A stretch of DNA of 64,000 nucleotides from Eubacteriales bacterium. Its GTDB lineage: Bacteria > Bacillota > Clostridia > Oscillospirales > CAG-272. Both the position numbers and the translations under genes were made by a program. The stretch covers positions 192-64,191 of the forward strand of contig JAZQCR010000128.1 in NCBI GenBank assembly GCA_045546375.1. The letters run 5' to 3'. Below the pieces are notes generated by a model that was not told where the DNA came from, made no database searches, and saw nothing but the letters and a program-made list of their open reading frames with translations. Below are positions 28,727-62,669 of the stretch, in pieces (the first letter of the stretch is position 1; every line of letters starts with the position of its first letter).

Positions 28727-29165
28727 TAAAAACGGCACCTAATAACATCCAAACGGCACCATGTTTATAGTAACCCTTCCCATTTTGATAGAATGTATAT
28801 GAGAGGATTTTTATGTTTAGTCAGGCTTGAGGATTATGTTCCGGATTCCGTGGATAGCGCAATTCTTTATCCAATTATCCCAGAAAATCAACGTTTTACC
28901 CCAACTTATCGGTTTTTGTGATAGAACTCTATATAATTTAAACTGAGAAGACCATTACATAAAAATACCAACGCAAAGTATGCAAGCAAAAATGAGATGA
29001 AGGATGCCCGTCGCATACAGAGCGTTGAATACATATACATTAATTCACAAATGAAGGAGAAAAGTTATGGAATTCAAAATAAGCACAAAAGTCATTAGTT
29101 TAATGCTGTCCATGTTAATGGTGTTTATGGCGTTTCCTGCAGGTGCCTTCGCCATTGGCGGAGAG
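28727..29165 (+). repeat. Copy A of a ~440-bp duplicated promoter, leader and signal-peptide module
   Basis: Aligns colinearly with 36391-36829 at a constant offset of 7664 nt. By eye there are about a dozen mismatches and no indels. Confidence 0.85.
28871..28902 (+). promoter_or_regulatory. Phased direct repeat (candidate LytTR response-regulator site) upstream of RHS toxin 1
   Basis: CCAATTATCCC (28871-28881) and CGTTTTACCCC (28892-28902) start 21 bp apart. TATAAT at 28932-28937 lies 29 nt downstream. Confidence 0.5.
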
Positions 29166-32100
29166 CAGACTGCACTGAACGCCGACGAAGCGGTCACCGC
29201 TTTACAGACGGAGGCGGCAGACGCACCCGCGGGCGACCCCACCGTATTATTTGAGCTGGAAGATATGCGTGGACCTAATGAAAAGGTATTCCGCATGTCA
29301 AACGGCAATTATTCCTCGGTGGTCTATACTACCGACGTGCATTACGAGGATAACGGTAGTTGGAAAGAGATCGATAACACGCTGATCTCAAGTGTCAACG
29401 GCATCCGCAACACATCATCGGACGTTTCATACACATTCTCCGATGAATCCACCTCACTCCCCGGGGTTGAGGTGGAATATGACGGATATCAGCTGTCATT
29501 CGAGGCAATAGACAATAAAATCAGCTCTTCCGCCTTCGCTCTTAAGCCTGTAAAATCAGAGAAAAGCTTCGATATAACCGTCCTGCAGCCCGAGAGTACG
29601 GCAGAAGTGGCAGACACGGACATATCCGACGCGGCGCGTATGCATAAAGCCAACGGAGGCATAACCTATCGCTCTGCCAACGGTACGGAAAGCTATCACT
29701 ATGATCTTCAGGGAAGATATCTGAAGGAGAGCATAATACTGACCGCGCCTAAGAGCACGTACGAGTACGCATTTCGGCTCAGAGCCGATGGTCTTACCGC
29801 TTTTCTTACCGAAGCCGGTGACGTTTCTCTCTGCGACGGTACGGAGCAGATATTCCTTATCCCGGCGCCTTATATGACCGATGCCGCGGGATCGTATAGC
29901 GAGGCGGCGCACTATGCCCTGCAAAATGCAGGAGCAGGTGAGTGGATAATGACCCTCACCGCTGATGCTGAGTGGATAAACGCAGACGACAGACAGTTTC
30001 CCGTAATCATTGATCCGTCTGTGGCAGTAGCAAAGAACGGATCATCAGACTATAATATCTACACGCAGTACGTAACCTCTGATAATATGAATACATATCA
30101 TCAGGGTGAGTCCACCTTCGTAGTAGGTACTACTAACGGTACAAACCGCGCCTACGGATATATGAAGGTAAACGCGCTGCCCACCCTGCCTGCCAATACC
30201 CGTCTGTGCAGTGCGGAAGTGAGGCTTTATATGTCTGCATATACTGCGTACGGAGTAAGCTCCTTTGATATGTACGTACAGGAGGCACTCCCTACCTGGA
30301 AGAATCAGTTTTTGTCATCAGGTGCTACGTCTAATACCTCGGCACTTCTTGACTATGCTTCCCTCAGCTCGAGCACCACGGGAGCATGGATAAAACTTGA
30401 CGTCACCGAGGCGGCCGAGAATTGGTACGATGACAGCACCACTAATAACGGTATAGTATTTTACAGCAGTACCGCTTCTGCGGGAAAAGCTACCTTCAGG
30501 GGATTCGTCAATAGCGGAACGGCGTCTTACTGTCCCTACTTCGTTATGACGTATCGTAATATTCAGGGCGTAGAGTCATACTATACCTACTATACCGAGG
30601 GCGTAGGACGCGCAGGCTCAGTGTACGTGTCCGACTATAACGGCAGTATGACCCTCGTGCGTACGGATATCAGCGACCCGGGATATACCCTTCAGCACGT
30701 ATATAACAGTAACTACGGCGACTATATCTTCAGTGCAGAGAATACTACGTCTCTTATGCATACCGTTGACTATAGCAATATGGTCGTAGGTAAGGGCTGG
30801 AAATTAAATGCCCAGGAGAGCATCATATCCAAGGGCGTGCCGTGGGTATCTACTACGGGCGTGCGCATGACGGCGCAGTATCTGATATATACCGACGGAG
30901 ATGGTACGGAGCATTTCTTCCATCCCACGGAGGACGACTATACCTATGCCGACGAGGACGGTCTGGGCCTTACCATCTATCACGACCACGGCGCAAACCA
31001 CTTTGCGATGACCGATGAAAAGGGCAACGAAAAGTTATTTGTAAAAGGATATCTGACTAAGATAACCGACACTAACGGCAACGTCACCGCTTTCGTGTAT
31101 AACGGAGCTACTTACACCACCGCGAACTCATCCTGGTTCCCCAATGCTACCGGTAATTACCTTAGCTCCATCGTGCGTCACAATGACGGCAAGACTGCGT
31201 ATACCGTTGCAACCTTAGGATATACCGATAAACGACTCACCTCGATCACCGACCGTTACGGCAGGACCACCACGTATAGCGTGAGCGCTCTCGCGTCCGA
31301 CGGGTCAGGCTATCAGATCAATCAGGTGACAGAGGCAGACGGAGCGTCGTCCTACTATACCTACGGTGGCGGCAACCTGCGTATGAACCGCGCCTATGAC
31401 CTGGAAAGCGGCGCAAACCTCACCATGACCTACCGTGACGGCAGACGTGATCTGATATCTATGACCAAGTCACACGCCGCTACTCTTAACGGCACGGTCA
31501 CAAAGAAGAGCCTGACGTATTTCAACATGTATTATAAGGGTAGGAGCCTGGTACGTGATACCGGCCTCGACCTTACGTCGGGTACCGCAGACGATATCGT
31601 ATGTACCTATGCCTTTGACGATTTCGGCAGGACAGTCAGTACCTACTGTGAGGACGGCTCGGGCGAGATCATCAGCGCATCGGGCGGCACCTATACCGCT
31701 AACGTTGCCACCAATAAGGATAACAATCGCCTATTGACAAGCGGCAGTATGGGGTTGTATAATGATGATGGAACATCAAACCTCGTTCCCAACGGCGGTT
31801 TTGAAAATGGTATAACCGGCTATTCCGCACAGAGCGGCGCTTCCTCTGTCAGCGGCTCGTCTTACGTACACAGCGGAAGTAAGGCGCTGAAGCTCACAGG
31901 CGGCTCGAATAAGCAGTCCGTTTATTCGAGAAATACCGGCATCACACTCACTGCATCAGAGGCGCAGAAAACCACATTCCTTTTATCGGGATGGGCGAAG
32001 GCTAATTCCGCACCTACGTGGGATGCAAACCGCACATTCCAGATCTCTGCCGAGATCAAGTACAGTGACGGCACTAACCAGTACGTCACGGCGAAGTTTA

Positions 32101-34985
32101 ATTATCAGGCAGAGGATCAGTGGCAGTACGTCAGCATACCCGTAGTGCCTAAGCACGCAAAGGCGGTAACTGATATCACCGTACACTGCTCGTATAAGAA
32201 TAATCTGGGCAATGCGTACTTCGATGACCTTATGATGGTCAAGGAGCCGTGCTCAACTTATAAATACAGAAGCGACGGAAAATTAGAGGCTGTCAATTCC
32301 ACCGAGCAGGCGGAGATAACCTACGGCTATAACGGCGCCGACCTTACCTCTGTAGTAGGCGGTGCGGGCGGCACCTATACCTACGTCTATGACGATGCTC
32401 ATAACGTGACCTCTGTTACCAATCTGGGCATGACCATGACCATCGGTTATGACGCCTCGGGTCATACTACCTCTACTAAACTCACTGCCGACGGCACAAA
32501 CAAGTATATGCAGACATCGGCGGCATACTCTGCCGACGGTAGCCGTGTTACCTCGGAGACGGATAACCTTGGTAATACTACCACGTACGGTCTCTCTGCC
32601 GAGAGCTCGGGTAACATTCGTTCGAGCGTTACTGCACCTTATTCCAATTCTGACGGAGCGGGCGGTACTGTCACATCCTACACCTTGACCAACAGCGTAG
32701 GCAGACCTACCCAGTCCTACGTATCGGGCGTGGCATCCCTGGACTTCGCTTACTCCAAGGGTAATCTCACCTCTGTCACGCGCGGCGGTTATATCCCGGG
32801 TAACAGTACCAAGCAGACTCAGAGCTATACCTTTACCTATAATAGTTTCGGTATGCCTCTGACTACTAAGGTCGGCACCAGGACCCTAGTAACCAATACC
32901 TACGTTAATAATACTTATCTGTCTAAGTCTACCTACGGAAACGGCGCCACCGTCACCTACACCTATGATGCTATGGGCAGGACTCTGACAAAGACCGCCT
33001 ACGGTATCACGGAAAGCTATACCTACGATAGGTATAATAACGTAAACGGTATTACTATGACTGCCGGAAGCACGCTGCTGGCTACCGTTTCCTATACCTA
33101 CGACTCTCTCGGCAGACTTATATGCAGTGAGGAGCGTAACGGCAGTAACCTGCTTAAGCGTAAGTTAAGCTACGTATATGACACACATAACCGCGTGGTC
33201 AGCTATACCTACTATGACGGCTCTGCAGACCGCACCGAGAGCTATACCTATAACTCCGACGGCACTGTTGCCACCTTTACCGTAGGTAACGGCGACGTTA
33301 TCACCTATAGCTACGATGCTCTTAAGCGCCTTGAGCAAAAGGACGTTGACGGTAAGTATACCGTAGATTACGGCTATTACGATAGGACGGCTACAAATAC
33401 CACTACCCTTATCGATGAGTATGGATATACCTTCGGTGAGGATAATACCTACAGATACACCTATGAGTATGACAACCTCGGTAATATCACCAAGATTTCT
33501 TTGTCAGAGAATAACGGAGTCTATCAAACGCTGGCTGAGTACGAGTATGACTCTATGGGTCAGCTCAAGATGGAGCAGCTCTATGACGAGGGGTATTCTA
33601 TCGTATATACCTACGATACCTACGGTAATATCCGTTCAAGAGCAAAGTACGATGGCTTCGCATTCACCGATGCAGGCTTAGCGACGAGTATTGGAGAACT
33701 TCTTGACACCGACACCTATACCTACGGCGATTCCGGCTGGAAAGACCTTCTTACATCGTATAACGGCAGCAGTATCACTTACGATGCCATAGGTAACCCT
33801 CTGACGTATAACAACGGCAGTACCTACACCATGTCCTGGACGGGCAGACAGCTTGACAGCGTCACCAAGGGCGGTGTCACTACCACCTATGAGTATGACA
33901 GCTCGGGTATGCGTACCACCAAGACGGTTGGAACAAAGAATCATCACTATCTGTACTACGGCGGTCAGCTTGTACGTTATACCATATCAAGTGAAGGAAC
34001 GCTGTACTTCTATTATGATGATAATGGAAGTCCCCTTGGTTTCACTTATACCGGTATGCAGGGAACCTCGGATTACTACTACGTTCTTAATCTGCAGGGT
34101 GATATAGTACAGCTACGCGATTCAAACGGCAATATTAAGGCTAACTATAATTACGACGCATGGGGCAAGCTGTTATCTGTCACTAACGCAAGCGGTAACG
34201 TGATAACATCATCCTCCAGTATGGCGATTATTAATCCCCTTCGCTATCGCGGATACGTCTACGACGCAGAGACAGGCTTCTATTATCTGCAGTCCAGGTA
34301 CTACGATCCTACCATCGGCAGATTCATCAGTGCCGACGGCCTGGTATCTACCGGCACCGGCGTGCTGGGCTACAATATGTTTACATATTGTAATAATAAT
34401 CCTGTGATGCACAGTGATCCGAGTGGGCAGAGCTTGCTAGAAGCGATAGACTGGGTTATAGGGTTTATTGTTGATGCTATTCAAAAGGTTCTTGTGGTAA
34501 AATATGATGTTCCCCTTTATGCACAAGGGGATACTAACCTGTGTTGGGCATACTGTCAGACTATGGTGGAAGATTATTGTTCAAATACTGAAAGAAGTCA
34601 AAAAAATGCAGACGAAAGGGCTCGAGATATTGCAACTTTGGTTAACGGAGAAAACGATTGGAACAGTGCGGGATGGCCGACTAATTGCAACCAATATAAT
34701 CCAAATGGTGTGCCGGTATTTCAAAAAAACATAGATTCTCCCTTAATGTTGTGTCTTGCTCTACGGCTTAATGGTCCAATATATGCGTATTACAATGACA
34801 AAGATTCAGCTCATCTTATTGTTGTAACAGGGTTTGATTATTTTAATGATATTGTATATACAAATAACCCATGGGGAAATACTGGAGAGCAAACATATAA
34901 CGAGTTTCAAAATGGATTTGCTGGTGGGACTAGTGATGGGACTTATAGTCTTTATGGTTATATATTAACAAGGAGATGTAAATGA
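29067..34985 (+). CDS. RHS/YD-repeat polymorphic toxin 1 (WapA-like) with a Sec signal peptide and a papain-like C-terminal toxin domain
   Basis: Signal peptide MEFKISTKVISLMLSMLMVFMAFPAGAFA, then a DNRLRE-like N-terminal domain and a CBM-like module (NGGFENG...AYFDDLMMV). Dozens of YD repeats follow, then the RHS core end PLRYRGYVYDAETGFYYLQSRYYDPTIGRFISADG...NNPVMHSDPSGQ. The last ~184 aa form the tip, with QGDTNLCWAYC and SAHLIVVTGF. Confidence 0.95.
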   Translation: MEFKISTKVISLMLSMLMVFMAFPAGAFAIGGEQTALNADEAVTALQTEAADAPAGDPTVLFELEDMRGPNEKVFRMSNGNYSSVVYTTDVHYEDNGSWKEIDNTLISSVNGIRNTSSDVSYTFSDESTSLPGVEVEYDGYQLSFEAIDNKISSSAFALKPVKSEKSFDITVLQPESTAEVADTDISDAARMHKANGGITYRSANGTESYHYDLQGRYLKESIILTAPKSTYEYAFRLRADGLTAFLTEAGDVSLCDGTEQIFLIPAPYMTDAAGSYSEAAHYALQNAGAGEWIMTLTADAEWINADDRQFPVIIDPSVAVAKNGSSDYNIYTQYVTSDNMNTYHQGESTFVVGTTNGTNRAYGYMKVNALPTLPANTRLCSAEVRLYMSAYTAYGVSSFDMYVQEALPTWKNQFLSSGATSNTSALLDYASLSSSTTGAWIKLDVTEAAENWYDDSTTNNGIVFYSSTASAGKATFRGFVNSGTASYCPYFVMTYRNIQGVESYYTYYTEGVGRAGSVYVSDYNGSMTLVRTDISDPGYTLQHVYNSNYGDYIFSAENTTSLMHTVDYSNMVVGKGWKLNAQESIISKGVPWVSTTGVRMTAQYLIYTDGDGTEHFFHPTEDDYTYADEDGLGLTIYHDHGANHFAMTDEKGNEKLFVKGYLTKITDTNGNVTAFVYNGATYTTANSSWFPNATGNYLSSIVRHNDGKTAYTVATLGYTDKRLTSITDRYGRTTTYSVSALASDGSGYQINQVTEADGASSYYTYGGGNLRMNRAYDLESGANLTMTYRDGRRDLISMTKSHAATLNGTVTKKSLTYFNMYYKGRSLVRDTGLDLTSGTADDIVCTYAFDDFGRTVSTYCEDGSGEIISASGGTYTANVATNKDNNRLLTSGSMGLYNDDGTSNLVPNGGFENGITGYSAQSGASSVSGSSYVHSGSKALKLTGGSNKQSVYSRNTGITLTASEAQKTTFLLSGWAKANSAPTWDANRTFQISAEIKYSDGTNQYVTAKFNYQAEDQWQYVSIPVVPKHAKAVTDITVHCSYKNNLGNAYFDDLMMVKEPCSTYKYRSDGKLEAVNSTEQAEITYGYNGADLTSVVGGAGGTYTYVYDDAHNVTSVTNLGMTMTIGYDASGHTTSTKLTADGTNKYMQTSAAYSADGSRVTSETDNLGNTTTYGLSAESSGNIRSSVTAPYSNSDGAGGTVTSYTLTNSVGRPTQSYVSGVASLDFAYSKGNLTSVTRGGYIPGNSTKQTQSYTFTYNSFGMPLTTKVGTRTLVTNTYVNNTYLSKSTYGNGATVTYTYDAMGRTLTKTAYGITESYTYDRYNNVNGITMTAGSTLLATVSYTYDSLGRLICSEERNGSNLLKRKLSYVYDTHNRVVSYTYYDGSADRTESYTYNSDGTVATFTVGNGDVITYSYDALKRLEQKDVDGKYTVDYGYYDRTATNTTTLIDEYGYTFGEDNTYRYTYEYDNLGNITKISLSENNGVYQTLAEYEYDSMGQLKMEQLYDEGYSIVYTYDTYGNIRSRAKYDGFAFTDAGLATSIGELLDTDTYTYGDSGWKDLLTSYNGSSITYDAIGNPLTYNNGSTYTMSWTGRQLDSVTKGGVTTTYEYDSSGMRTTKTVGTKNHHYLYYGGQLVRYTISSEGTLYFYYDDNGSPLGFTYTGMQGTSDYYYVLNLQGDIVQLRDSNGNIKANYNYDAWGKLLSVTNASGNVITSSSSMAIINPLRYRGYVYDAETGFYYLQSRYYDPTIGRFISADGLVSTGTGVLGYNMFTYCNNNPVMHSDPSGQSLLEAIDWVIGFIVDAIQKVLVVKYDVPLYAQGDTNLCWAYCQTMVEDYCSNTERSQKNADERARDIATLVNGENDWNSAGWPTNCNQYNPNGVPVFQKNIDSPLMLCLALRLNGPIYAYYNDKDSAHLIVVTGFDYFNDIVYTNNPWGNTGEQTYNEFQNGFAGGTSDGTYSLYGYILTRRCK

Positions 34986-35512
34986 AAATTTTATGCTTTG
35001 TCTTGCTTTTTACAATAATACTACTTGTTGGATGTACCAATAAATCAGCAGGGGTCGAAAGTATCTTGAGTAAAGATTGCTCAATCATAGAAACAAAATA
35101 TCCAAATGGTGATGATGTTAAAATGAATAATTGTAAGTTAATTATTAATGGCATTGAAGTTGTTGATTCTGCTTATATTAATATTGATATTGAAAATCGA
35201 TTTGCGGAGGTGCCGTTGCTGTTAATTGTGAATGCATTAGGCTCAGACTTTGAGTGGAGAAGTGGAGTATTGTTTATTGATGGAGTTAATAGCGGCATTG
35301 ATCCTGCGAATGATGATTTTGGATTAATAAGAATGCCAGGGCAGATTCATATGATTCGAAAAAAGATTGATGGAGATTTGATATTTGATAGCACTTCTAT
35401 TAAAGGGATACTTTATAATATGTTAAATGCCACAATTGACATTGATTATACAAATATGGTGATAAATGTGAACACAGGTAATGTGAACACAGGTGACGGT
35501 TCTCTGTGTTAA
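34982..35512 (+). CDS. Lipoprotein, putative cognate immunity protein for RHS toxin 1
   Basis: Has a lipobox, MKILCFVLLFTIILLVGC. It overlaps the toxin stop (ATGA), and it and the toxin tip are clearly more AT-rich than the RHS body. Confidence 0.6.
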   Translation: MKILCFVLLFTIILLVGCTNKSAGVESILSKDCSIIETKYPNGDDVKMNNCKLIINGIEVVDSAYINIDIENRFAEVPLLLIVNALGSDFEWRSGVLFIDGVNSGIDPANDDFGLIRMPGQIHMIRKKIDGDLIFDSTSIKGILYNMLNATIDIDYTNMVINVNTGNVNTGDGSLC

Positions 35513-35670: not shown

Positions 35671-35850
35671 GGTAATCCCCTGACGTATAATAACGGCAGC
35701 GCATATACTATGTCCTGAACGGGCAGACAGCTTGATAGTGTCACCAAGGGCGTTGTCACCACCACCTACGAGTATGACAGCTCGGGCATGCGTACGTCAA
35801 AATCTGTTGGCAGCGATGATTATGATTATCTTTACTACGGCGGACAGTTA
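35671..35850 (+). pseudogene. Orphan RHS core fragment
   Basis: About 180 nt colinear with 33792-33970 of RHS1. It reads GNPLTYNNGSAYTMS*TGRQLDSVTKG..TTTYEYDSSGMRT, with an in-frame TGA where RHS1 has TGG. It has no start codon and is truncated at both ends. Confidence 0.8.
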
Positions 35851-36390: not shown

Positions 36391-36829
36391 TAAAAACGGC
36401 ACCTAATAACGTCCAAACGGCACCATGTTTATAGTAAACTTTCCCATTTTGATAGAATGTATATGAATAGATTTTTATGTTTAGTCAGGCTTGAGGATTA
36501 TGTTCCGGATTCCGTGGATAGCGCAATTCTTTATCCAATTATCCCAGAAAATCAACGTTTTACCCCAACTTATCGGTTTTTGTGATAAAACTCTATATAA
36601 TTTAAACTGAGAAGACCACTACATAAAAATACCAACGCAAAGTATGCGAGCAAAAATGAGATGAAAGACGCCCGTCGCATACAGAGCGTTGAATACATAT
36701 ACATCAATTCACAAATGAAGGAGAAAAGCTATGGAATTCAAAATAAGCACAAAAATCATTAGTTTAATGCTGTCCATGTTAATGGTGTTTATGGCGTTCC
36801 CTGCAGGTGCTTTTGCTATTGGCGGAGAA
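36391..36829 (+). repeat. Copy B of the duplicated promoter, leader and signal-peptide module
   Basis: See copy A (28727-29165). Confidence 0.85.
36535..36566 (+). promoter_or_regulatory. Phased direct repeat (candidate LytTR site) upstream of RHS toxin 2
   Basis: CCAATTATCCC (36535-36545) and CGTTTTACCCC (36556-36566). TATAAT at 36596-36601 lies 29 nt downstream. Confidence 0.5.
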
Positions 36830-52795: not shown

Positions 52796-53140
52796 ATGAA
52801 AGTATTTGGTACAAGATTGAAATTGTTGCGTGAAAAACATAATCTTACGCAGCTTGCGCTTAGCACGAGACTTGGAATGGCACAAGAGTCAATTAGCGCA
52901 TATGAAAGGGACAATAATACACCCAGCATTGAAGTGTTAAAAGAGATTGCTGATTATTTCAATGTAAGCGCTGATTATTTGTTAGGTATTGATGACCTAG
53001 AAGTTAGAATAAACGAACATACTTTGGATGCGTTCGAGGTAACTTTATTAAGAAATTTCAGAATACTTCCGCAAATGCAAAAAGAATTGCTTGTTAAGAT
53101 TTCTGCGAATATGGTGGAGCTATATCATCAGCAAAGATAA
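52796..53140 (+). CDS. XRE-family HTH regulator
   Basis: MKVFGTRLKLLREKHNLTQLALSTRLGMAQESISAYERDNNTPSIEVLKEIADYFNVSADYLLG. An extended -10 (TGGTATAAT, 52736-52744) lies upstream. Confidence 0.8.
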   Translation: MKVFGTRLKLLREKHNLTQLALSTRLGMAQESISAYERDNNTPSIEVLKEIADYFNVSADYLLGIDDLEVRINEHTLDAFEVTLLRNFRILPQMQKELLVKISANMVELYHQQR

Positions 53141-53194: not shown

Positions 53195-53323
53195 TTACTT
53201 CATCAGTTTTTTGAGTTCAGCAGGTTCTTTTGCCTGGTGCTGTCCCCACTGTGAAGCTGCTCCGGCTGCCTTTTTTGCTGCAGCAAGAGCCACGCTAGCA
53301 AACGCTTTAGAGATGAGTTTCAT
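53195..53323 (-). CDS. agrD: AgrD-like autoinducing-peptide precursor (42 aa), absent from the ORF track
   Basis: My reverse-complement translation gives MKLISKAFASVALAAAKKAAGAASQWGQHQAKEPAELKKLMK. The RBS AAAGGAGA lies 7 nt upstream. The layout is an amphipathic leader, a core, and a charged tail with P-x-E-L spaced as in known AgrDs. It lies immediately downstream of agrB with a 17-nt overlap. Confidence 0.7.
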   Translation of the reverse strand: MKLISKAFASVALAAAKKAAGAASQWGQHQAKEPAELKKLMK

Positions 53324-53903
53324 TAGTGGATCTCCTTTCTATATAATTTTTAATTATTCCGATTGGCACCATAACGAGAACTGCAACAATCGTAAATAAA
53401 ATTATTTTATAATAATCACAATTTATTAAGTACATAATTGTACAAATAAGTATTAATCCTGCGAGGAATGCAAGAGATATTAGCTTGCATTCTTTTTTTT
53501 GCTTTTTGTCCAATGGTTTATACTTGTTTTCAACAGGACAAAGCAAACTTAGTATACATGAACCTACTATACCTGTAATTAGTATAGACAAAACGGAAGG
53601 ATTCGAATTATTGGCAATAAAAGCTACGGTACTAAATGTAAAAAACATAGATAAATTGCATACAAGGTAGGTATTTGCATGATATCCGCCACAGTACATT
53701 CTTATGGGTATGAACGTAAGTAAAAATAACAGTGAATCAACAATGTTAAAGAAAACAAAGCCGGCAATAAATACAATGCACATTCCAACAAACGAGGATA
53801 CTGAAATTTCTACACCGTATTGATAAACATTTACTAGAGTAGGATCAATTATTTGTCTACTTGCCCATGAAATAGCCAGTTGTTTGGATATTTTTTTTAT
53901 CAT
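53307..53903 (-). CDS. agrB: AgrB-family AIP-processing membrane peptidase
   Basis: Polytopic membrane protein with IPIRMYCGGYHANTYLVCN. The His and the Cys 7 residues later have the same spacing as the catalytic H77/C84 of S. aureus AgrB. Confidence 0.9.
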   Translation of the reverse strand: MIKKISKQLAISWASRQIIDPTLVNVYQYGVEISVSSFVGMCIVFIAGFVFFNIVDSLLFLLTFIPIRMYCGGYHANTYLVCNLSMFFTFSTVAFIANNSNPSVLSILITGIVGSCILSLLCPVENKYKPLDKKQKKECKLISLAFLAGLILICTIMYLINCDYYKIILFTIVAVLVMVPIGIIKNYIERRSTNETHL

Positions 53904-53966: not shown

Positions 53967-53998
53967 GGTGTATTTTGCAAGTAAATTGGTTTAATTGG
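53967..53998 (-). promoter_or_regulatory. Phased direct repeat (candidate LytTR site) in the agrBD promoter
   Basis: On the minus strand, CCAATTAAACC (53998-53988) and CAAAATACACC (53977-53967) start 21 bp apart. TATAAT (53937-53932, minus strand) lies 29 nt downstream. Confidence 0.55.
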
Positions 53999-54090
53999 GA
54001 AAATATATGGTACATTTTCTACAATAATGATATTTATTGGTGAATTTTATAAAAATAATTCATGAGAAAATCAAATTTATAAATGGAATG

Positions 54091-54122
54091 CCAAATACCC
54101 CTAAATTCGAACAATTTACACC
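54091..54122 (+). promoter_or_regulatory. Phased direct repeat (candidate LytTR site), divergent from the agrBD site and facing the PK-like operon
   Basis: CCAAATACCCC (54091-54101) and CAATTTACACC (54112-54122). TATTAT at 54152-54157 lies 29 nt downstream, and there is also a TATAAT at 54135-54140. Confidence 0.55.
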
Positions 54123-54243
54123 AACAACGAGTTATATAATTAGTTTTATGATATTATTTCAATACATATTATTAGTGCTTTATCTTGTTTAGGCTGATAG
54201 AGCAAGTAGCTTCTTAATTCGATAACATAGGAGAAATGTTGAT

Positions 54244-55248
54244 ATGAGTGAGTTTGATTTGATAGCAACGATAGGTGCCAAAATTACTAATGTTCAAGAT
54301 GTTCAGAGAATAATTGAATATGGATTTAATCATTTAAGATTTAATTTTTCTAAATATGATAAAAATCTTGAGGATAGAGTTAATATGATCCGCTGTTTGA
54401 AGGATTTATATGAGAATGACATAAAAGTATTGATTGACTTACCATATCCAGGCAAAAAAGCTAGAATATATCACAATAAGAATTACTTTGATATTATAAC
54501 TGGTCAAGAGTTGGAAATTGTCTCAGATATTGTTAGAAAAGAGAGCGAGCGATTTGTAACAGATTTGCCCTCAATCGGACGCTTTGTCCAAAAGGATACG
54601 ATTATTGTTTATTCAGATGGAGAAGCTTTATTAAGGGTAATAAAAGTAATTGATGTTAATACCATTTTGGTGAGAGCCGAATCTGATTTCTTCTTTAGAA
54701 ATGGGAAGTCGCTTAGTTTTGATTATCCTAAACGTGGTCACATGCTTGAATATAAATTTGTTGATATTATTAGAGATATACGGCCAAATGAAATTGCATT
54801 GTCCTTTGTAGAAAATTCTGAAGATATACGTTCCTTTAAAATGATTGGATCTAATTGTATGAACGGTATGACAATTTTAAGTAAAATTGAAACACAGAGC
54901 GGAATAGATCATATAGACGATATTTGCCGAAACTCCGACGTGATTATTGGTCGAGGAGATATGAGCATTAATACGGATATACATAAATTGTATCAAAACC
55001 AAAAATACATTGTAAAAAGTGCAAAAAAATGCGGACGCAATTGTTATATAGCAACTGGAATTTTGAATTCGTTGACGACTCAACACTTTCCAACACAAGC
55101 AGATATCATCGATTTGTCCGTTATTATCAATATGCGCCCTAAAGGAATCATATTAAATGCGGAGGTTGTTTGGAAAAGACCTGAAATGGTTTTAAAGACA
55201 ATAACTGAGGTAAAAGAAACGTTGGAGGCTGAGGGGATATACAATTGA
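54244..55248 (+). CDS. Pyruvate-kinase-like TIM-barrel protein lacking the PK C-terminal domain
   Basis: Colinear PK blocks: IATIGAK...GFNHLRFNFSKY (compare RLNFSHG), VLIDLPYPGKKAR (compare LDTKGPEIR), ALSFVENSEDI, ILSKIETQSGI (the KIE block), IIGRGDMSIN (compare ARGDLGVE) and QKYIVKSAKKCGRNCYIATGILNSL. The protein ends after the barrel at 334 aa. Confidence 0.65.
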   Translation: MSEFDLIATIGAKITNVQDVQRIIEYGFNHLRFNFSKYDKNLEDRVNMIRCLKDLYENDIKVLIDLPYPGKKARIYHNKNYFDIITGQELEIVSDIVRKESERFVTDLPSIGRFVQKDTIIVYSDGEALLRVIKVIDVNTILVRAESDFFFRNGKSLSFDYPKRGHMLEYKFVDIIRDIRPNEIALSFVENSEDIRSFKMIGSNCMNGMTILSKIETQSGIDHIDDICRNSDVIIGRGDMSINTDIHKLYQNQKYIVKSAKKCGRNCYIATGILNSLTTQHFPTQADIIDLSVIINMRPKGIILNAEVVWKRPEMVLKTITEVKETLEAEGIYN

Positions 55249-55315
55249 TATAATTTGATTTGTTAATGAGTGCAGGGAAGTGCCCTAAAATGTATGTTGT
55301 TGAAGGCGGGAAATT

Positions 55316-56923
55316 ATGTTGAAAAGTAATTTAAGGATTGATCGTTGCGTGGAGAGGTATTTAACTAAATTGTTTTATAGGGAACAGTATGGTGACCTCA
55401 TTTATTCGAGCAAGTTGGAGTATGTGTTTTTAGAGAATAGGAGTTTAAGTAAATATTTACATAATTTAAAAGATGTAGAGGAAGATTTTGAGTTACAAAA
55501 ATCACGCAAAGAAACTATGGATAATGTGCTAGTTTTGGCTAATACATTGCTGTGTGAAAATGGTATAACTCCCATATGTTTTAAAGGGAGTATTTTAGCT
55601 CAACTCGTATATCATAATCCTAGTGCGCGTGTTTTTAATGATGTTGATTTGGTAGTTGAACAAGAGGATTTCGAAGACACTTTAAAAATCCTAAAATTGA
55701 ATGGCTTTGAACAAGAATCTTTATACGATGCTCATCACATAAGGCTAAATAAAGATAATGTTCGTGTTGAAATACATACTTGTTTCTATCATCCTAAGAA
55801 TAATATAATTTTTGTTCCAAGAGAAGAAGATATAATTTATGAAACCATCAAAGGGTGCTCAATAAAAACACTTGATTTGACAAGCTTATTGATATGTTTA
55901 TTGTACCACCAGTATGTCCATTGCGTAAATGATTCGTTGTTTTCAGACTATAGGTTTTTGACCCATCAATATGTTTATTGCTTTGCTAGATCTTTGTTTA
56001 GGTATTATGATATTGCTTTGTTGATAAATAAATATAACCAACAAATCCGATGGGAGGATTGTTATGATGCTATAAGGCAAGCAGAGTTGAGCATTGAATT
56101 TAAAATGATGGTTCAAGAGTTTAACAGTATATTTACTGATCTATTGCCACACGAATTCATTGATCTTGTTATGCATAAAAACTATGTGCAGAATGGTGAA
56201 TACAATGTATACAATTACATATACCACAATTACTCATCTAAAGAAAGGTTATATAAAATTGATGATGCTGTAACTGATGCGTGTAATAGCATTTATACTA
56301 CACCATTAGTAATTAATTGCTACAAGAATAAATCTGTTGAACATATATTTCATATCGATGAATATTCCGGGAATATATTGAACCCTAGCGGGTCGTATTC
56401 TATTGGCGCAGTAAAACCGCAGAATAGTGATGATCTCTCATTTGATTTTAACATATGGCTATCTTCAAATATGCTAAATTTTGGTTTTTCTGTTAAGAGT
56501 GACAGGGTTTGTTCAATTCATCGGGGGGCCTTAATAGACAATCGTGATATGATTAACAGGTGTGACAATGTTGGTATTGTAATCGTGCCCGGGAATGGAC
56601 GATATAAGAAAAGTGACCTTTTTGTTCTGCTGGAAGAAACAGAAGAAGGAGTGGTTGTGCCAAGGGTATATGATGACTGGGTTGACATTACGGACAAAGT
56701 TAATGTTGGATTACAAGTAACAGCGTGTGGCTATGATTTGGATTTGAGTATACCCATAGAGTATCTTGGCATTTCATCGAAAAAAGGAGATCATTTTATC
56801 ATGGATTTATCTGTAAGCGATTGTGATGAATGCGCAAATAGAAAGTCTACTTTAGCATTATCTGTATATAAATGTGAAAGTGGGCAATTTAAGTATTATG
56901 CGAAGGTGCAAATAGCTGAATAG
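55316..56923 (+). CDS. PF14907-like 'uncharacterised nucleotidyltransferase' fused to a C-terminal beta-rich (CBM9-like?) domain
   Basis: CFKGSILAQLVYHNPSARVFNDVDLVVEQEDFEDTLKILKLNGF matches the KG...R...D(I/V)DLLV...G signature. The C-terminal ~200 aa end in GYDLDLSIPIEYLGISSKKGDHFIMDLSVSD. Confidence 0.6.
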   Translation: MLKSNLRIDRCVERYLTKLFYREQYGDLIYSSKLEYVFLENRSLSKYLHNLKDVEEDFELQKSRKETMDNVLVLANTLLCENGITPICFKGSILAQLVYHNPSARVFNDVDLVVEQEDFEDTLKILKLNGFEQESLYDAHHIRLNKDNVRVEIHTCFYHPKNNIIFVPREEDIIYETIKGCSIKTLDLTSLLICLLYHQYVHCVNDSLFSDYRFLTHQYVYCFARSLFRYYDIALLINKYNQQIRWEDCYDAIRQAELSIEFKMMVQEFNSIFTDLLPHEFIDLVMHKNYVQNGEYNVYNYIYHNYSSKERLYKIDDAVTDACNSIYTTPLVINCYKNKSVEHIFHIDEYSGNILNPSGSYSIGAVKPQNSDDLSFDFNIWLSSNMLNFGFSVKSDRVCSIHRGALIDNRDMINRCDNVGIVIVPGNGRYKKSDLFVLLEETEEGVVVPRVYDDWVDITDKVNVGLQVTACGYDLDLSIPIEYLGISSKKGDHFIMDLSVSDCDECANRKSTLALSVYKCESGQFKYYAKVQIAE

Positions 56924-57004
56924 ACAGAAAGCAGTCGATGTTAATGAGTATAACACGGATAATGATAAAGCATTGTTATTTGGCGAATTAAGAGGAAGAT
57001 AGCA

Positions 57005-58825
57005 GTGAAAGAATATAAGGACAAACCGAAGTATAACTTGTGGCAGAATACCGTGCATATATTTGGCCTTGCCTGGCGAGAGCAAAAAGCGGTAATATCC
57101 ACATGCTTTGTATCACCGGGTCTCACTACTCTTACAAGGCTCACGGATATATACATCGCCCCCGTTATACTTGCTTGCATTGAACGAGGCTATTCGCTGA
57201 TTGAGCTGTTATGGACGATATCCTTCTTTATTGGTACATCGATGCTCTTGCGCGCTTTGTACGCATTTAATAGTTCCAGAGTAGGCTTTACCAGAAAAAC
57301 GCTAGTGCAGAGGGTGAGGGTCAAGCTGATAGAAAAAATCGAGACTACTTCGTATGCTAACATAGATGATCAGACGATTCTCAATAAGATGTATGCTGCC
57401 AAGTGTGCATTGGGCGATTATGAGAAGTATTGGAGCAGGGTCAGCATGACATGCACGAATATCCTTGGCTTTTTCGCCTATCTGTGGGTGTTGCGCTCCC
57501 TTAATATTTTGCTGGTAGTCGTGACTGTGGGTACCACCCTTTTTAGTACATATATGACAAAGTGTCTGAATGACTGGCTGTATGGGCAGAATCCTGAGAT
57601 GGCGAGATATGAGCAGATTATCGGTCATGTGTTTGAGCGTTCGCAGAGTGTCGCGGCGGCGAAGGATATTCGTATCTTCGGTATGAAGGAATGGCTCATG
57701 GGTATTTACGAGCGCACTCTGCTTTTATACCATGCACTGATCGTACGGCACAACAGCAAGCATTTACTTATGAGGCTGATGGATCAGGCACTGTTTCTTT
57801 TGCGCAACGGCGTGGCGTATGCGTACCTGATCACCGTGTCATTGAACGCAGGATGGTCTGCGTCCAGCTTTGTCCTATACTTTGGGGCGATAACGGGATT
57901 TGTCAGCTGGGTCAATGGCTTTCTAGGCGGTTTCACCGAATTGCAGGCGTGCAGTAACAAGATTAGCGCCGTGAGAGAATTTATGGAGCTTGATGAGCCC
58001 TTCCGGTTTGAGGACGGTGAGCCCCTCCCACTTCCACATGATGGAAAGTGCGAGATAACCTTGCGGGGTGTATGTTACCGCTATCCGGGCGCTGCTGAGG
58101 ACACTCTGCGCGATATAGATCTGACCCTGCGCATGGGAGAAAAGATAGCTGTCGTAGGGCTTAACGGAGCAGGAAAGACTACGCTTATAAAGGTTCTTTG
58201 CGGTCTTTATGATCCCAGCGAGGGCGAGGTTCTCTTAAACGGCGTAGATATCCGAAGATATAATCGCCGTGATTATTATAACTATTTTTCTGCCGTCTTT
58301 CAGAAATTTTCTCTGCTTGAGGGCACGTTGGCAGAGAATATCGCACAGAGTGTTGCCGATATTGACCTTCCCCGTGTGGAGTGGTGCGCCCACTTGGCTG
58401 GGTTAGAGGATAAGATAGCTTCTCTGCCGAATGCCTATGATACCCACCTCGGAAAGACTGTTTACGAGGACGGGATAGAACTCTCGGGCGGCCAGACCCA
58501 GCGGCTGATGCTCGCTCGTGCATTATACAAAGATGCACCCGTACTACTCTTAGATGAGCCCACTGCGGCGCTTGACCCGATAGCGGAAAACGAGATATAT
58601 CAGCGTTATAACGATCTGGTTCAGGGGCGCTCTGCTGTATATATATCCCACCGCCTTGCCTCTACACGCTTTTGCGACCGAATAGTGTACTTAGAGAATG
58701 GTCGCATAGCAGAGTCGGGAACGCACGATGAGCTTTTAGCGGCAGGTGGTAAATATGCAGAACTGTTTGAGATACAGGCACGCTATTACAGAGATGGAGG
58801 GGAAGATGTGCAAGACAGAAAATAA
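57005..58825 (+). CDS. ABC exporter, fused permease and ATPase (half-transporter 1)
   Basis: Six-TM N-terminal half, Walker A GLNGAGKTT, signature LSGGQTQR and Walker B LLLDEPT. GTG start. Confidence 0.9.
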   Translation: MKEYKDKPKYNLWQNTVHIFGLAWREQKAVISTCFVSPGLTTLTRLTDIYIAPVILACIERGYSLIELLWTISFFIGTSMLLRALYAFNSSRVGFTRKTLVQRVRVKLIEKIETTSYANIDDQTILNKMYAAKCALGDYEKYWSRVSMTCTNILGFFAYLWVLRSLNILLVVVTVGTTLFSTYMTKCLNDWLYGQNPEMARYEQIIGHVFERSQSVAAAKDIRIFGMKEWLMGIYERTLLLYHALIVRHNSKHLLMRLMDQALFLLRNGVAYAYLITVSLNAGWSASSFVLYFGAITGFVSWVNGFLGGFTELQACSNKISAVREFMELDEPFRFEDGEPLPLPHDGKCEITLRGVCYRYPGAAEDTLRDIDLTLRMGEKIAVVGLNGAGKTTLIKVLCGLYDPSEGEVLLNGVDIRRYNRRDYYNYFSAVFQKFSLLEGTLAENIAQSVADIDLPRVEWCAHLAGLEDKIASLPNAYDTHLGKTVYEDGIELSGGQTQRLMLARALYKDAPVLLLDEPTAALDPIAENEIYQRYNDLVQGRSAVYISHRLASTRFCDRIVYLENGRIAESGTHDELLAAGGKYAELFEIQARYYRDGGEDVQDRK

Positions 58826-60674
58826 AATGAGCTTCATGAAAGCAATTTCACTTAACTTCCGTGCGGTTCGTATGTGGTATAGCGCCTGTCCGATGTTGGC
58901 TTTTTCCGACATTGTCGGAACTGTGCTTGGCGCTGTTTCTCCGAGCATCACCATCTGGCTGTCCGCGCGTATCGTGGACGAGCTGGCAGGAGAGCGAGAT
59001 CCCGATCGGCTGTTGATGCTTGTCCTGCTTACTCTTGGCAGTCACCTTTTGGTCACGCTCTTTACCATTGGCCTTGAGCGTTTTACTTGTTATTTTGCTA
59101 CGGCCATGGGCTTTTATCGTGAGAAGCTTTATGCCGGTAAATTACTGGCTATGGATTTTTGCCGTATGGATGATCAGAGGACTCATGATTTGTATACGCA
59201 GGTGAAGCAGCACGATGAATGGGGCTACTCCATAGAGAGCGCGGTGAGTCATTTCAGCGGTTTACTTCGTTCTTTTTCGGGGATAGGCGGAGTTATCGCG
59301 CTTTGCTTCAGTATGTTCACTTCTCGTGTACCTAATAGCGCAGGCGCGCTAACCGTACTTAACAACTCATTTTTCGTTCTTGGGATAGGAGCGGTTATGT
59401 TTGCGGTAACGTCACTGGCGCCAAGGTTTGAGAACAAGGGTCGAGCGTATTGGAATCGGTATGCAGAGGAAGCGAGGCTTGAAAATAATCTTAACCGTTT
59501 TTACGGTGATACCTTTCCCCACGACCGCTCCCGTGCGGCAGACATCCGCCTATACCATCAGGACAGAGTGAGCGGATACTATGTCGAGCGTAGCGATGTT
59601 TATACCGCCACCTCAAAGATGGCCACATATGCGCGCGGCCCCATTACTTTTTACAGGATACTGTCGGTCGTCTTTTCTTACTGTTTTATAGGCATCACGT
59701 ATTTTATCGTTTGCCTGAAGGCATGGGCAGGAGCATTTGGTGTAGGTCATGTTACTCAATATATAGGTGCTCTTACAGGACTTTCTCGCTGTATTACGGA
59801 ATTTATTGGTTCTATAGGTCAGATGCGTAATCTCGCACCTTTTCTCGAAACATTTTTTGAGTTCAAGGCTATACCGAATTCTATGAAGCAGGGGAGCAGG
59901 GAGATCGTGAAGGACGAGAATGATTATGAGATAGAGTTCCGTGACGTTTCCTTCAAGTATCCGGGTAGTGATATATGGGCTCTGCGCCATGTTAATATCC
60001 GATTCAGTTCGGGGCAGAGGCTGGCTGTGGTGGGCAAGAACGGAAGCGGAAAGACCACCTTCATAAAGCTCCTTTGCCGTATGTACGATCCCACAGAGGG
60101 CGTGATATTTTTAAACGGCACAGATATCCGTGAATATGACTACGAAGAGTATCTGTCTGTCTTCTCGGTGGTATTTCAAGATTTCAAACTGTTCTCCTTG
60201 CCTTTGGGTGAAAATGTGGCGGCGTGCTCTGATTATGACCGAGACAAGGTGGAGCGACTGCTCAGGCAAGCGGGCTTCGGCGAGAGGCTGACCTCTATGC
60301 CCGACGGGATAGACACGTACCTCTATAAGGATCTGTCGGAAACCGGTGTGGAGATATCAGGCGGAGAAGCGCAGAAGATTGCTCTGGCTAGGGCACTCTA
60401 CAAGGACGCGCCCTTTATCATCCTGGACGAGCCTACCGCCGCACTTGATCCTGTAGCTGAGCACGAGATATACTCTTGCTTCAACGAGCTGGTGGAGACT
60501 AGGACTGCTATTTATATCAGCCATCGCTTATCCTCCTGCCGTTTCTGCGATACTATTGCCGTTTTTGCGGATGGTAGGATAGTCGGGGAGGGAAGTCACG
60601 AGATTTTGCTCTCTAATGAAGAGGGAGAATACTACAAGCTCTGGTACGCTCAGGCACAATATTATGCTTCTTAA
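58806..60674 (+). CDS. ABC exporter, fused permease and ATPase (half-transporter 2)
   Basis: Walker A GKNGSGKTT, signature ISGGEAQK and Walker B IILDEPT. The ATG at 58806 is preferred because it follows GGAGGGG; the ORF-track start at 58746 lies deep inside the upstream gene. Confidence 0.9.
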   Translation: MCKTENKMSFMKAISLNFRAVRMWYSACPMLAFSDIVGTVLGAVSPSITIWLSARIVDELAGERDPDRLLMLVLLTLGSHLLVTLFTIGLERFTCYFATAMGFYREKLYAGKLLAMDFCRMDDQRTHDLYTQVKQHDEWGYSIESAVSHFSGLLRSFSGIGGVIALCFSMFTSRVPNSAGALTVLNNSFFVLGIGAVMFAVTSLAPRFENKGRAYWNRYAEEARLENNLNRFYGDTFPHDRSRAADIRLYHQDRVSGYYVERSDVYTATSKMATYARGPITFYRILSVVFSYCFIGITYFIVCLKAWAGAFGVGHVTQYIGALTGLSRCITEFIGSIGQMRNLAPFLETFFEFKAIPNSMKQGSREIVKDENDYEIEFRDVSFKYPGSDIWALRHVNIRFSSGQRLAVVGKNGSGKTTFIKLLCRMYDPTEGVIFLNGTDIREYDYEEYLSVFSVVFQDFKLFSLPLGENVAACSDYDRDKVERLLRQAGFGERLTSMPDGIDTYLYKDLSETGVEISGGEAQKIALARALYKDAPFIILDEPTAALDPVAEHEIYSCFNELVETRTAIYISHRLSSCRFCDTIAVFADGRIVGEGSHEILLSNEEGEYYKLWYAQAQYYAS

Positions 60675-60942: not shown

Positions 60943-61899
60943 ATGTCAAAACAAAATCGCGCGTTGCTAGTTTTAAAATATATTTGGGAGAATAGTGATG
61001 TAGAACATCCAGTCACGGCCAAAAGTATTATTTGTTACCTGAACAGCCAGGGAATAACTGCCACGGCCAAAACTATAAGAGGAGATGTAGATCAATTAAT
61101 TGAATTTGGTATAGATATCGAGATAATTCACAGCACTCAAAATAGATATTTCCTATATGAAAGATGCTTCGAATTAGCTGAGATTAAATTGCTTATTGAT
61201 GCAGCTCAATCTGCTAGGTTTATTACACCTACAAAAAGTAAAGGCTTGATAAATAAACTATCTAAGTTTGCGAGTGTTCATCAGAAAAGCGAGTTAAATC
61301 GCCAATTGTATGTAGATAAACATATTAAATCACAAAGCAATAGCGGTTATTATTCTGTAGAGCCAATACATACAGCTATACAAAACAAGAAAAAAGTATC
61401 TTTTAAGTATTTGGAATATATGCCTGACAAGACAATGAAAGAAAAGCATAGTGGTAGGATATATTTCTTATCGCCATATTCCCTTATTTGGAATGAAGAT
61501 AGTTACTATGTCATAGGTTTTTCTGATTCACATGATCGAATAGCAAAATTCCGCGTGGATCGCATGAAAGATCTTGATGCTTTAGATGAGCCGGCTCATA
61601 AAAAACCAAGAGATTATTCTGTTGCAAACTATTTTTCGCGGGTTTTTTCAATGTATGATGGTCCAGAATATGAAGTGAAAATACTCTGTGAAAATGAAAC
61701 TATGAAGTATATCATTGATAGATTCGGTGAAAATGTAACGACTTCGATTGTTGACGGCAAGCACTTTATGGCTACCGTTGTGGTATGTCTTAGTCCTGCA
61801 TTTTACGGATGGATATTTTCTTTTGGTGGCAAGTTGAAAATTGTAGGGCCGGAAAATGTATTGAAGGAATTTGTAAATATATTACAGGCTTTTTATTGA
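60943..61899 (+). CDS. WYL-domain transcriptional regulator (YafY-like: wHTH, WYL and a C-terminal extension)
   Basis: The N-terminal wHTH reads LLVLKYIWENSDVEHPVTAKSIICYLNSQGITATAKTIRGDVDQLIEFG. The WYL core reads VSFKYLEY...RIYFLSPYSLIWNEDSYYVIGFSDSHDRIAKFRVDRM. Confidence 0.8.
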   Translation: MSKQNRALLVLKYIWENSDVEHPVTAKSIICYLNSQGITATAKTIRGDVDQLIEFGIDIEIIHSTQNRYFLYERCFELAEIKLLIDAAQSARFITPTKSKGLINKLSKFASVHQKSELNRQLYVDKHIKSQSNSGYYSVEPIHTAIQNKKKVSFKYLEYMPDKTMKEKHSGRIYFLSPYSLIWNEDSYYVIGFSDSHDRIAKFRVDRMKDLDALDEPAHKKPRDYSVANYFSRVFSMYDGPEYEVKILCENETMKYIIDRFGENVTTSIVDGKHFMATVVVCLSPAFYGWIFSFGGKLKIVGPENVLKEFVNILQAFY

Positions 61900-62235: not shown

Positions 62236-62267
62236 CCAAATACCCCCGAAAAACAACAAATTATCCC
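62236..62267 (+). promoter_or_regulatory. Phased direct repeat (candidate LytTR site) inside the ORF-free region, site 1
   Basis: CCAAATACCCC (62236-62246) and CAAATTATCCC (62257-62267). TATATT at 62295-62300 lies 27 nt downstream. Confidence 0.45.
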
Positions 62268-62637
62268 AACATTCGTTTTTTGGTTTTATTACGGTATATT
62301 GTATGTAGTAAACAATATGTATTCTGTCGAAATGGGGCCTAGTTTTGATATATTGTGCATGAATTGAATAATCATTTATAAGTATAACTATCTGTGATTA
62401 TAGTTGACGAGTGGCGGTTATGCTTTTTGAACATGTTGGACAAATGTTTTTTGGATATTTTATGTGAAATTCTTTCGCCAGTTTGAATTTTGAATGATTT
62501 TGGTGTTTACCAAGAAATTCGTACAACATAGATATTAGATTTAGAATTAATGTAGTTCACGGCGAAATGCAGTTTTGATACTAACTGATTAATTGGTTTT
62601 TTAATGGCATATATTCATGAAAGTATTATTGTCTTGA

Positions 62638-62669
62638 CTAGATACACCTAAAATCATACCAAATACACC
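62638..62669 (+). promoter_or_regulatory. Phased direct repeat (candidate LytTR site) inside the ORF-free region, site 2
   Basis: CTAGATACACC (62638-62648) and CCAAATACACC (62659-62669). TAAAAT at 62698-62703 lies 28 nt downstream, and there is also a TATAAT at 62679-62684. Confidence 0.45.

Follow-up and report, generated by a model that had tools for sequence, protein, structure and literature searches.

Phased direct repeats at six promoters suggest a compact agr-type LytTR regulon that includes RHS toxin genes on a clostridial conjugative element

We analyzed 64,000 nt of DNA from an Eubacteriales bacterium (Clostridia; CAG-272; GCA_045546375.1, contig JAZQCR010000128.1, positions 192-64,191 of the forward strand), and refer to this whole stretch as the window. 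On the conjugative element that it carries, six intergenic promoter regions share a pair of 11-bp direct repeats set 21 bp apart. These phased repeats are probably the operator of a LytTR-type response regulator encoded at 51900-52619, and would define a compact agr-type regulon with the peptide-signal genes agrBD and two RHS polymorphic toxin genes among its predicted members. Such wiring suggests that the element may activate its weapons at high cell density, where regulator binding, activation and density dependence are what we infer from the sequence. The original prediction of an agr/LytTR regulon is supported in silico by the protein families of the module, by conservation of the motif beside orthologous regulators, and by the scores that the window sites obtain from a model built on relatives only.

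The six sites, two of which we call I1 and I2, are the following (PK-like, pyruvate-kinase-barrel-like):

28871-28902, plus strand: predicted operator of RHS1, CCAATTATCCC-N10-CGTTTTACCCC, then AAC; TATAAT at 28932-28937
36535-36566, plus strand: predicted operator of RHS2, same pair as RHS1 (CCAATTATCCC and CGTTTTACCCC); TATAAT at 36596-36601
53967-53998, minus strand: predicted operator of agrBD, CCAATTAAACC-N10-CAAAATACACC; TATAAT at 53937-53932
54091-54122, plus strand: predicted, divergent operator of the PK-like operon, CCAAATACCCC-N10-CAATTTACACC, then AAC; TATTAT at 54152-54157
62236-62267, plus strand: predicted operator I1, CCAAATACCCC-N10-CAAATTATCCC, then AAC; TATATT at 62295-62300
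62638-62669, plus strand: predicted operator I2, CTAGATACACC-N10-CCAAATACACC; TAAAAT at 62698-62703

The direct 11-bp half-site pairs were found where they had been claimed, with a start-to-start spacing of 21 bp in 6/6, and every one of the six sites is intergenic and oriented toward the next downstream gene. Each consists of two imperfect repeats with the half-site consensus C[C/A]A[A/T][A/T]TA[C/T][A/C]CC, in which positions C1, T6, A7, C10, and C11 are invariant; the narrower consensus CCAAWTAYMCC, which all twelve half-sites had been said to fit, is matched exactly by only 5/12, the others having 1-3 mismatches. Six promoter positions do carry the repeat as proposed, but RHS1 and RHS2 have duplicates of a single site, so that five sites are independent, and among these five the spacers and flanks are unrelated. 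The pattern CNNNNTAHMCC-N10-CNNNNTAYMCC occurs at these six places only on both strands of the 64 kb, against 0.01 matches expected (mean over 100 dinucleotide shuffles of the window), a statistic that is post hoc because the pattern was derived from the sites themselves. At a spacing of 21 bp the core TAYMCC..TAYMCC is found 7 times, against 0-2 times at each other spacing from 11 to 45 bp, and two of the seven lie within RHS genes and lack the remaining positions of the half-site. In a scan of the window for pairs with a position weight matrix (PWM), the six sites (25.7-31.3 bits) stood apart from everything else in the window (16.8 bits for the next match, then 12.1).

The promoter geometry is equally regular. 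A -10 hexamer begins exactly 29 nt past the proximal half-site at the four sites for which this had been predicted (TATAAT at RHS1, RHS2, and agrBD; TATTAT at the PK-like operon), and the distance is 27 nt at I1 (TATATT) and 28 nt at I2 (TAAAAT). With five sites from relatives added to the six of the window, the hexamer lies 27-29 nt beyond the proximal repeat in 11/11 sites, and this fixed distance bears out the claim that the repeat abuts the -35 position; the half-sites are predicted to span about -73 to -42. Most of the motif promoters were not called as canonical sigma-70 promoters by promoter prediction, and at RHS1 the -35 position is poor (TCGGTT), with no recognizable -35 element.

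The genes of the agr module lie between the MobL relaxase region and the PK-like operon:

50571-51893, minus strand: AgrC-type sensor histidine kinase (HATPase_c_5; about 6-7 hydrophobic segments in residues 1-215)
51900-52619, minus strand: response regulator (receiver domain and LytTR DNA-binding domain), which is proposed to bind the repeats
52778-53140, plus strand: Xre-type helix-turn-helix (HTH) gene, in opposite orientation between agrD and the regulator gene
53195-53323, minus strand: agrD, 42 aa, MKLISKAFASVALAAAKKAAGAASQWGQHQAKEPAELKKLMK (TIGR04223), with the predicted signal region SQWGQ and then an HQAKEPAEL tail
53307-53903, minus strand: agrB (PF04647)

AgrB matched PF04647 with 115 bits (cutoff 23), and AgrD, whose gene overlaps the agrB stop codon, matched TIGR04223 with 38 bits (cutoff 19). 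A LytTR regulator and an AgrC-like kinase had been read at 50571-52619, and family matches confirm both: the regulator scored 47.9 bits with PF04397 (LytTR) and 41.9 bits with PF00072 (receiver), its best full-length solved relative being ComE (4cbv), and the kinase, a multi-pass membrane protein whose hydrophobic segments extend over residues 34-217, scored 67.5 bits with PF14501 (HATPase_c_5). Against the staphylococcal AgrC equivalog model the kinase reached 23.5 bits (cutoff 500), and it is not an equivalog. The agr genes are split into agrBD, the opposite-strand Xre gene, and the regulator-kinase pair instead of forming a single agrBDCA operon; split arrangements are known in clostridia (PMC10602386). 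The agrBD and PK-like operators stand back-to-back in a 340-bp divergent intergenic region, so an operator is located upstream of agrBD as an autoregulatory loop would have it, the loop itself being predicted. Scans of the window with the PWM and with the composite model described below found no repeat pair upstream of the regulator-kinase operon, which is presumably expressed independently.

Motif and regulator were then compared across genomes. The nearest relatives of the regulator, from unannotated metagenome assemblies, share 57-60% identity with it, and none is both close and named. The locus L081 (regulator 60% identical) has agrB-agrD, an opposite-strand Xre gene, regulator, and kinase on a conjugative element with another backbone, and its divergent agrB intergenic region holds two phased pairs, one at each promoter, each with AAC and then TATAAT after 29 nt. 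The same two divergent pairs stand at agrB in L084 (regulator 44%), and in L086, where the contig starts inside the agrB promoter, the proximal half-site, AAC, and TATAAT are visible. In L082 (regulator 59%), an orphan regulator-kinase locus, one pair precedes a leucine-rich-repeat/S-layer-homology surface protein. The repeats of relatives are spaced 21 bp apart in 5/5 sites. A drifted version is seen in L092 (AgrD 64% identical), the one locus returned by an AgrD-based metagenome scan, with three TTATCCC repeats in 20-21-bp steps and TATAAT 29 nt after the last. In all five of these loci the -10 hexamer is retained at a distance of 28-29 nt. Across loci the module is orthologous (AgrB 48-56%, regulator 44-60%, kinase 49-57%, and Xre 63-68% identical), and in an alignment of ten promoters conservation is limited to the two half-sites, the A(A/C) that follows, a T-tract, and the -10 hexamer. 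The Xre gene keeps its place in the module in L081, L084, L087, and L088 and is absent from L082 and L086; since the latter two carry the motif nonetheless, the motif follows the regulator-kinase pair, which is the sole gene set common to all motif-carrying loci.

Other searches were less productive. A genome scan with the regulator alignment (a generic receiver-domain pattern) returned distant relatives only, the best of which (L001, 42%) lacks the motif; the closest regulators in the plasmid database are at most 29% identical; and an AgrD-based scan of viral contigs gave nothing. A related motif pattern matched 8 stretches in IMG/VR, most of which look like 21-bp repeats in coding sequence or like chance matches; the -10 geometry is present in none of the eight (0/8). 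The best homologue of the RHS N-terminus was 33% identical, and the RHS loci L090 and L091 have no upstream motif. The rest of the L081 contig (L093, reached via the coupling protein) differs in its conjugation backbone, and neither an RHS gene nor any further site occurs on it.

Three observations on these loci stand on their own. A weak third half-site, GAAAATGTACC at 54009-54019 (minus strand), lies 21 bp further upstream of the agrBD pair and accounts for the 16.8-bit PWM match; it may be an ancestral feature, because the agrB promoter of L092 has three phased repeats. The AgrD pattern ...AAGAASQW..EP..L is common to five loci (window 53195-53323, L081 8197-8325, L086 684-812, L087 560-688, and L084 9311-9442), and the predicted signal region AAGAASQWGQHQ hardly varies across loci whose kinases and regulators are 44-60% identical and whose element backbones differ, a hint that the elements may have one pheromone in common and might cross-talk. 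In L084, the second divergent operator (8497-8528, minus strand) is directed antisense into a TcdE-type holin gene (8030-8446) and also toward a 187-aa sigma-70 region-4 protein (7316-7879), with no open reading frame (ORF) directly downstream; it may serve a regulatory or antisense RNA, or may control a TcdR-like sigma factor.

The relatives also allowed the window sites to be scored independently, with a weight matrix built from their five pairs and the window sites left out. The pair scores were 28.6 bits for I1, 27.3 for the PK-like operon, 24.5 for I2, 23.7 for agrBD, and 16.1 for RHS1/RHS2, and the four non-RHS sites exceed all best scores of 200 shuffled windows (mean 12.9, maximum 19.9). 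A composite model, which adds to the relatives' pairs a -10 hexamer at 27-29 nt and the three nucleotides that follow the proximal repeat, gave 29.7-38.0 for all six window sites, with the RHS sites at 29.7 and the next window position at 13.3. Nothing reached 18 in a negative control of 1.29 Mb of unrelated loci, namely 80 loci of distant relatives from the regulator-alignment scan. Together with the promoter arrangement given below, these scores make it very unlikely that the RHS site is a chance match.

Both RHS genes are borne on the conjugative element, as had been proposed, being flanked by type IV secretion system (T4SS) genes on one side and by relaxase and coupling protein genes on the other. 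Each is followed by a small gene:

29067-34985, plus strand: RHS1, 1972 aa, comprising RHS repeats behind a Sec-type signal peptide, a PxxxxDPxG boundary, and at the C-terminus a Peptidase_C70-like toxin domain
34982-35512, plus strand: immunity-protein candidate by position only, 176 aa, overlapping the RHS1 stop codon, no family match
36731-44305, plus strand: RHS2, 2524 aa, with the same 33-aa signal peptide as RHS1 and a different C-terminal domain
44299-44889, plus strand: immunity-protein candidate by position only, 196 aa, overlapping the RHS2 stop codon, no family match

RHS repeats (PF05593) were detected in both proteins. RHS1 has the boundary PVMHSDPSGQ at residue 1779, followed by the Peptidase_C70-like tip, and RHS2 has a degenerate boundary and a C-terminal tip with no family assignment; toxin function and contact dependence are predicted for both. 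The two genes share a block of about 440 nt comprising promoter, 5' untranslated region, and the first 33 codons (28727-29165 versus 36391-36829), which is 96% identical at the DNA level, whereas the proteins are 43% identical outside it. This difference suggests recent gene conversion, or a cassette exchange that preserves regulation and export as the toxin body changes. The plasmid database held no match to the cassette. Separately, an 82%-identical partial copy of the RHS1 3' region (33792-33968) lies at 35671-35847, in the gap after the RHS1 immunity candidate, and resembles an RHS tip fragment that has been orphaned or displaced.

Mechanistically, we propose that AgrB would process the 42-aa AgrD into a cyclic peptide, probably with a Ser-lactone SQWGQ ring (by analogy, and from the position of the EP..L tail), which the AgrC-type membrane kinase would detect before phosphorylating the regulator. 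A regulator dimer would then bind the two 11-bp direct half-sites 21 bp apart, at about -73 to -42, and could recruit RNA polymerase to promoters whose -10 element is good and whose -35 element is poor. Its predicted targets are agrBD (positive feedback), the operon of the PK-like protein, NTP_transf_5, and ABC exporters, the cluster of MazG-like and radical-SAM genes behind I2, the I1 transcript, and the two putative toxin-immunity pairs with Sec-secreted RHS proteins.

Several points weigh against this proposal. A G critical to VirR, RgaR, and AgrA sites is absent from the half-site, and another LytTR regulator could be encoded outside the window. Regulators about 40% identical (L094-L096) are accompanied by no motif or by a weak variant only. 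The I1 transcript has no identifiable product. Most of the doubt attaches to the RHS site, the weakest of the six and the sole one without cross-genome support: no RHS-bearing relative carrying the motif was found, its pair alone (16.1 bits) falls inside the shuffle null and close to a coding-region match at 14128 (16.4 bits), and its proximal half-site CGTTTTACCCC has T at the near-invariant A3.

These weaknesses are the substance of the alternative that survives best, in which the operator is real at agrBD, the PK-like operon, I1, and I2, while the RHS copy is unused or weakly used and the RHS genes are otherwise driven. The gap between the RHS pair and the other four sites (23.7-28.6 bits) and the replaced A3 would be as expected, and so would the presence of the module in L081/L093, L082, and L084 with no accompanying RHS gene. 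We nevertheless regard it as unlikely, for with AAC and TATAAT at 29 nt taken into account the RHS sites rise to 29.7 while the rest of the window stays at or below 13.3 and the 1.29-Mb control below 18. Moreover, the RHS promoter shares the arrangement AAC-N7-TTTTTG-N13-TATAAT with the L081 and L082 sites, no canonical sigma-70 promoter was called nearer the RHS gene than the repeat, and the cassette has stayed nearly identical before two otherwise divergent genes.

A second alternative, to which we give less weight still and which we consider improbable, accepts the operator and assigns it to another protein: the Xre-type HTH protein (52778-53140), the WYL regulator (60943-61899), or a LytTR regulator from outside the window. 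The Xre gene is indeed kept inside the module in the window, L081, L084, L087, and L088, the genome beyond the window could supply another LytTR regulator, and the half-site is unlike canonical LytTR consensus sequences. However, L082 and L086 carry the motif although no Xre gene separates agrD from the regulator, a WYL gene is missing from L081, and both candidates were rejected as binder since the motif persists in their absence. Dimers of HTH proteins usually recognize inverted repeats rather than direct repeats two helical turns apart. Phased direct repeats abutting the -35 are the published LytTR pattern (PMC4227749, PMC2838878, PMC10602386), and the regulator-kinase pair is all that the motif-bearing loci share. 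Finally, an origin of the pattern by chance in AT-rich intergenic sequence, or of the six sites as copies of a repeat element that has dispersed, for which one could cite the duplicated RHS site and the eight IMG/VR stretches, is extremely improbable given six matches against 0.01 expected, enrichment restricted to the 21-bp spacing, the motif kept at the homologous position in other genomes, a 1.29-Mb control with no matches, and the unrelated flanks and spacers on which the repeat element was rejected.

The reading that the LytTR regulator at 51900-52619 binds the repeats can be set beside known systems, and the predicted architecture comes nearest to the compact regulons of the RgaR/VirR type. 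RgaR of C. difficile acts on about five promoters, including that of agrB1D1 and one for a small RNA, through VirR-like repeats with critical bases at -72 and -51 (PMC10602386). As in RgaS-RgaR, the LytTR-type regulator and kinase here are encoded apart from agrBD, and there are about five direct promoters with two direct repeats 21 bp apart and agrBD itself among the predicted targets; RgaR targets also include hypothetical proteins and, in a region poor in ORFs, a small RNA, to which I1 may be a parallel (PMC10602386). Unlike the RgaR system, the window module sits on a conjugative element, its agrBD is adjacent to the regulator-kinase pair with Xre between, and its predicted targets are RHS toxins and the radical-SAM/ABC cluster, whereas RgaR controls sporulation.

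In C. perfringens, VirR binds two boxes within a core of about 50 bp that abuts the -35, both repeats and their position are required, and some of the toxin targets are plasmid-borne (PMC2838878). The window resembles VirS/VirR in having two imperfect direct repeats directly upstream of the -35 and predicted toxin targets, VirR targets being secreted toxins. The VirSR system, however, is chromosomal with agrBD elsewhere, while signal, sensor, regulator, and toxin targets here lie on one mobile element, and its toxins are pore-formers rather than RHS polymorphic toxins. The boxes differ as well (CCAGTT... in VirR, CCAAWTA... in the window), with A/T in the window half-site where both RgaR and VirR have their critical G. 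The resemblance to the VirR box that had been noted thus holds as a partial likeness, but the conserved G is missing and the published consensus is not matched. AgrA-type sites have a ..GTT.. consensus. With no critical G in the half-site, the specificity of VirR, RgaR, or AgrA is not transferable, and the half-site is, as a predicted LytTR site, a new one.

In S. aureus, AgrA acts on direct-repeat pairs at the divergent P2 and P3 promoters (PMC4227749). The window shares with that system the set of AgrB, AgrD, AgrC-type kinase, and LytTR regulator, two divergent promoters in one intergenic region with a repeat pair each, weak core elements, and (predicted here) agrBD auto-induction. It differs in having no single agrBDCA operon and no operator over the regulator-kinase pair, in the Ser that replaces Cys at the predicted ring position of AgrD, and in a divergent transcript that encodes enzymes and exporters instead of RNAIII. 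Density or community control of contact-dependent toxins has precedents in the toxin-immunity genes of B. thailandensis, delivered by a type VI secretion system (T6SS; PMC4868534), and in DegSU control of WapA and LXG toxins in B. subtilis (PMC8321402). Toxin-immunity pairs switched on by a density or community signal would be common to those cases and the window; those depend on an acyl-homoserine-lactone LuxR-type system or DegSU, chromosomal genes, and delivery by T6SS or type VII secretion, whereas the circuit predicted here is peptide-based, LytTR-dependent, on a conjugative element, and directed at RHS proteins with Sec signals.

No earlier description of the wiring had been known, and a full-text literature search agreed, finding no paper that joins LytTR, agr, quorum sensing, and Rhs. 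What is unreported is the target set, with Sec-secreted RHS toxins, and its mobile-element context; the general principle that LytTR regulators switch on toxins or bacteriocins via phased direct repeats is well established, and for this reason a specialist would find the case interesting and not startling. If true, it would be the first case found of agr/LytTR control of RHS polymorphic toxins, and a compact regulon in uncultured gut-type Clostridia with one operator at five independent promoters. Because signal, sensor, regulator, and targets travel together, the peptide may report the local density of element carriers and not that of the species. We raise tentatively, as a possibility and less than a probability, that this makes a private circuit in which, above a threshold, the RHS pairs and a RiPP-like product (RiPP, a peptide made by the ribosome and modified after translation) would harm element-free neighbors. 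If so, it would amount to a density-gated 'greenbeard' weapon of a mobile element that favors carriers and hence spread or retention of the element, and the near-invariant SQWGQ across backbones would let unrelated elements share one signal. With the wiring as predicted, one conjugative element would join peptide quorum sensing, interbacterial toxins, and horizontal transfer, which are usually studied apart. The new half-site would be useful for studies of LytTR specificity, and the conserved AgrD peptide is open to structure determination.

Regarding the element itself, the conjugation machinery found by an ORF scan of the window includes a relaxase, a coupling protein, a VirB4-like ATPase, and TrbL. 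A Tad-like ATPase, TrbL, the VirB4-like ATPase, and an NlpC/P60 hydrolase lie 5' of RHS1, and the stretch from RHS2 to the agr module contains the MobL relaxase, a Toprim protein, and the coupling protein. The term integrative and conjugative element (ICE) had been used for it; the conjugation machinery is present, but the scan of the window ORFs showed neither an integrase nor an att site, the ends of the element being outside the window. The element may be an ICE or a conjugative plasmid. Direct control of the conjugation genes was considered and rejected, as the T4SS and relaxase operons have no nearby site and the PWM and composite scans of the window found no repeat pair upstream of any conjugation operon. 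The element also carries Tad/Flp-pilus-like genes at 10466-13867 (A24 prepilin peptidase, RcpC/CpaB-like protein, T2SSE ATPase), two DNA methyltransferase genes (2620-3885 and 7416-8447), and, in the conjugation region directly 5' of RHS1, Amidoligase_2 and gamma-glutamyl-cyclotransferase-like genes (26624-28232).

The genes downstream of the remaining operators are as follows:

54244-60674, plus strand: operon that encodes a pyruvate-kinase-barrel-like protein, NTP_transf_5, and a pair of ABC exporters, syntenic with the L081 operon under predicted motif control
63029-64000, plus strand: genes 3' of I2, namely a MazG-like gene (63029-63379), a gene for a 173-aa protein (63354-63875), and a radical-SAM gene from 63880 that runs beyond the window end

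The region of I1 and I2 had been described as ORF-free, which holds for I1 but not for I2, where the MazG-like, 173-aa, and radical-SAM genes (CNASCVYC, 63880) come next. For the I1 transcript no ORF preceded by a ribosome-binding site was detected, Rfam gave no family, and there was no terminator; its RNA folding was not unusual (z = +1.1), and it showed no similarity to other loci; I1 may be a second promoter of the radical-SAM operon, or may give a small RNA as with SpoZ of RgaR. Within the window we detected no precursor peptide that would belong to the presumed RiPP cluster. The radical-SAM gene begins with MINKVFFDITKYCNASCVYC... and continues past the window end. Inside the 173-aa ORF, Rfam gave a sub-threshold tracrRNA match at 63494-63579 (plus strand; 31 bits versus a gathering threshold of 70, E = 0.016), which is most likely chance.

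The L081 operon syntenic with the PK-like operon has the order NTP_transf_5-ABC-ABC-PqqD-radical SAM-radical SAM. The 334-aa protein at 54244-55248, which consists of a pyruvate-kinase barrel only and heads the NTP_transf_5/ABC operon in the window, is absent from it. A WYL/WCX regulator with a FokI_D3-like N-terminus (60943-61899) is inserted in the window between the ABC exporters and the radical-SAM cluster; in L081 the exporter and radical-SAM genes are contiguous in one operon, and the insertion in the window coincides with the extra operators I1 and I2.

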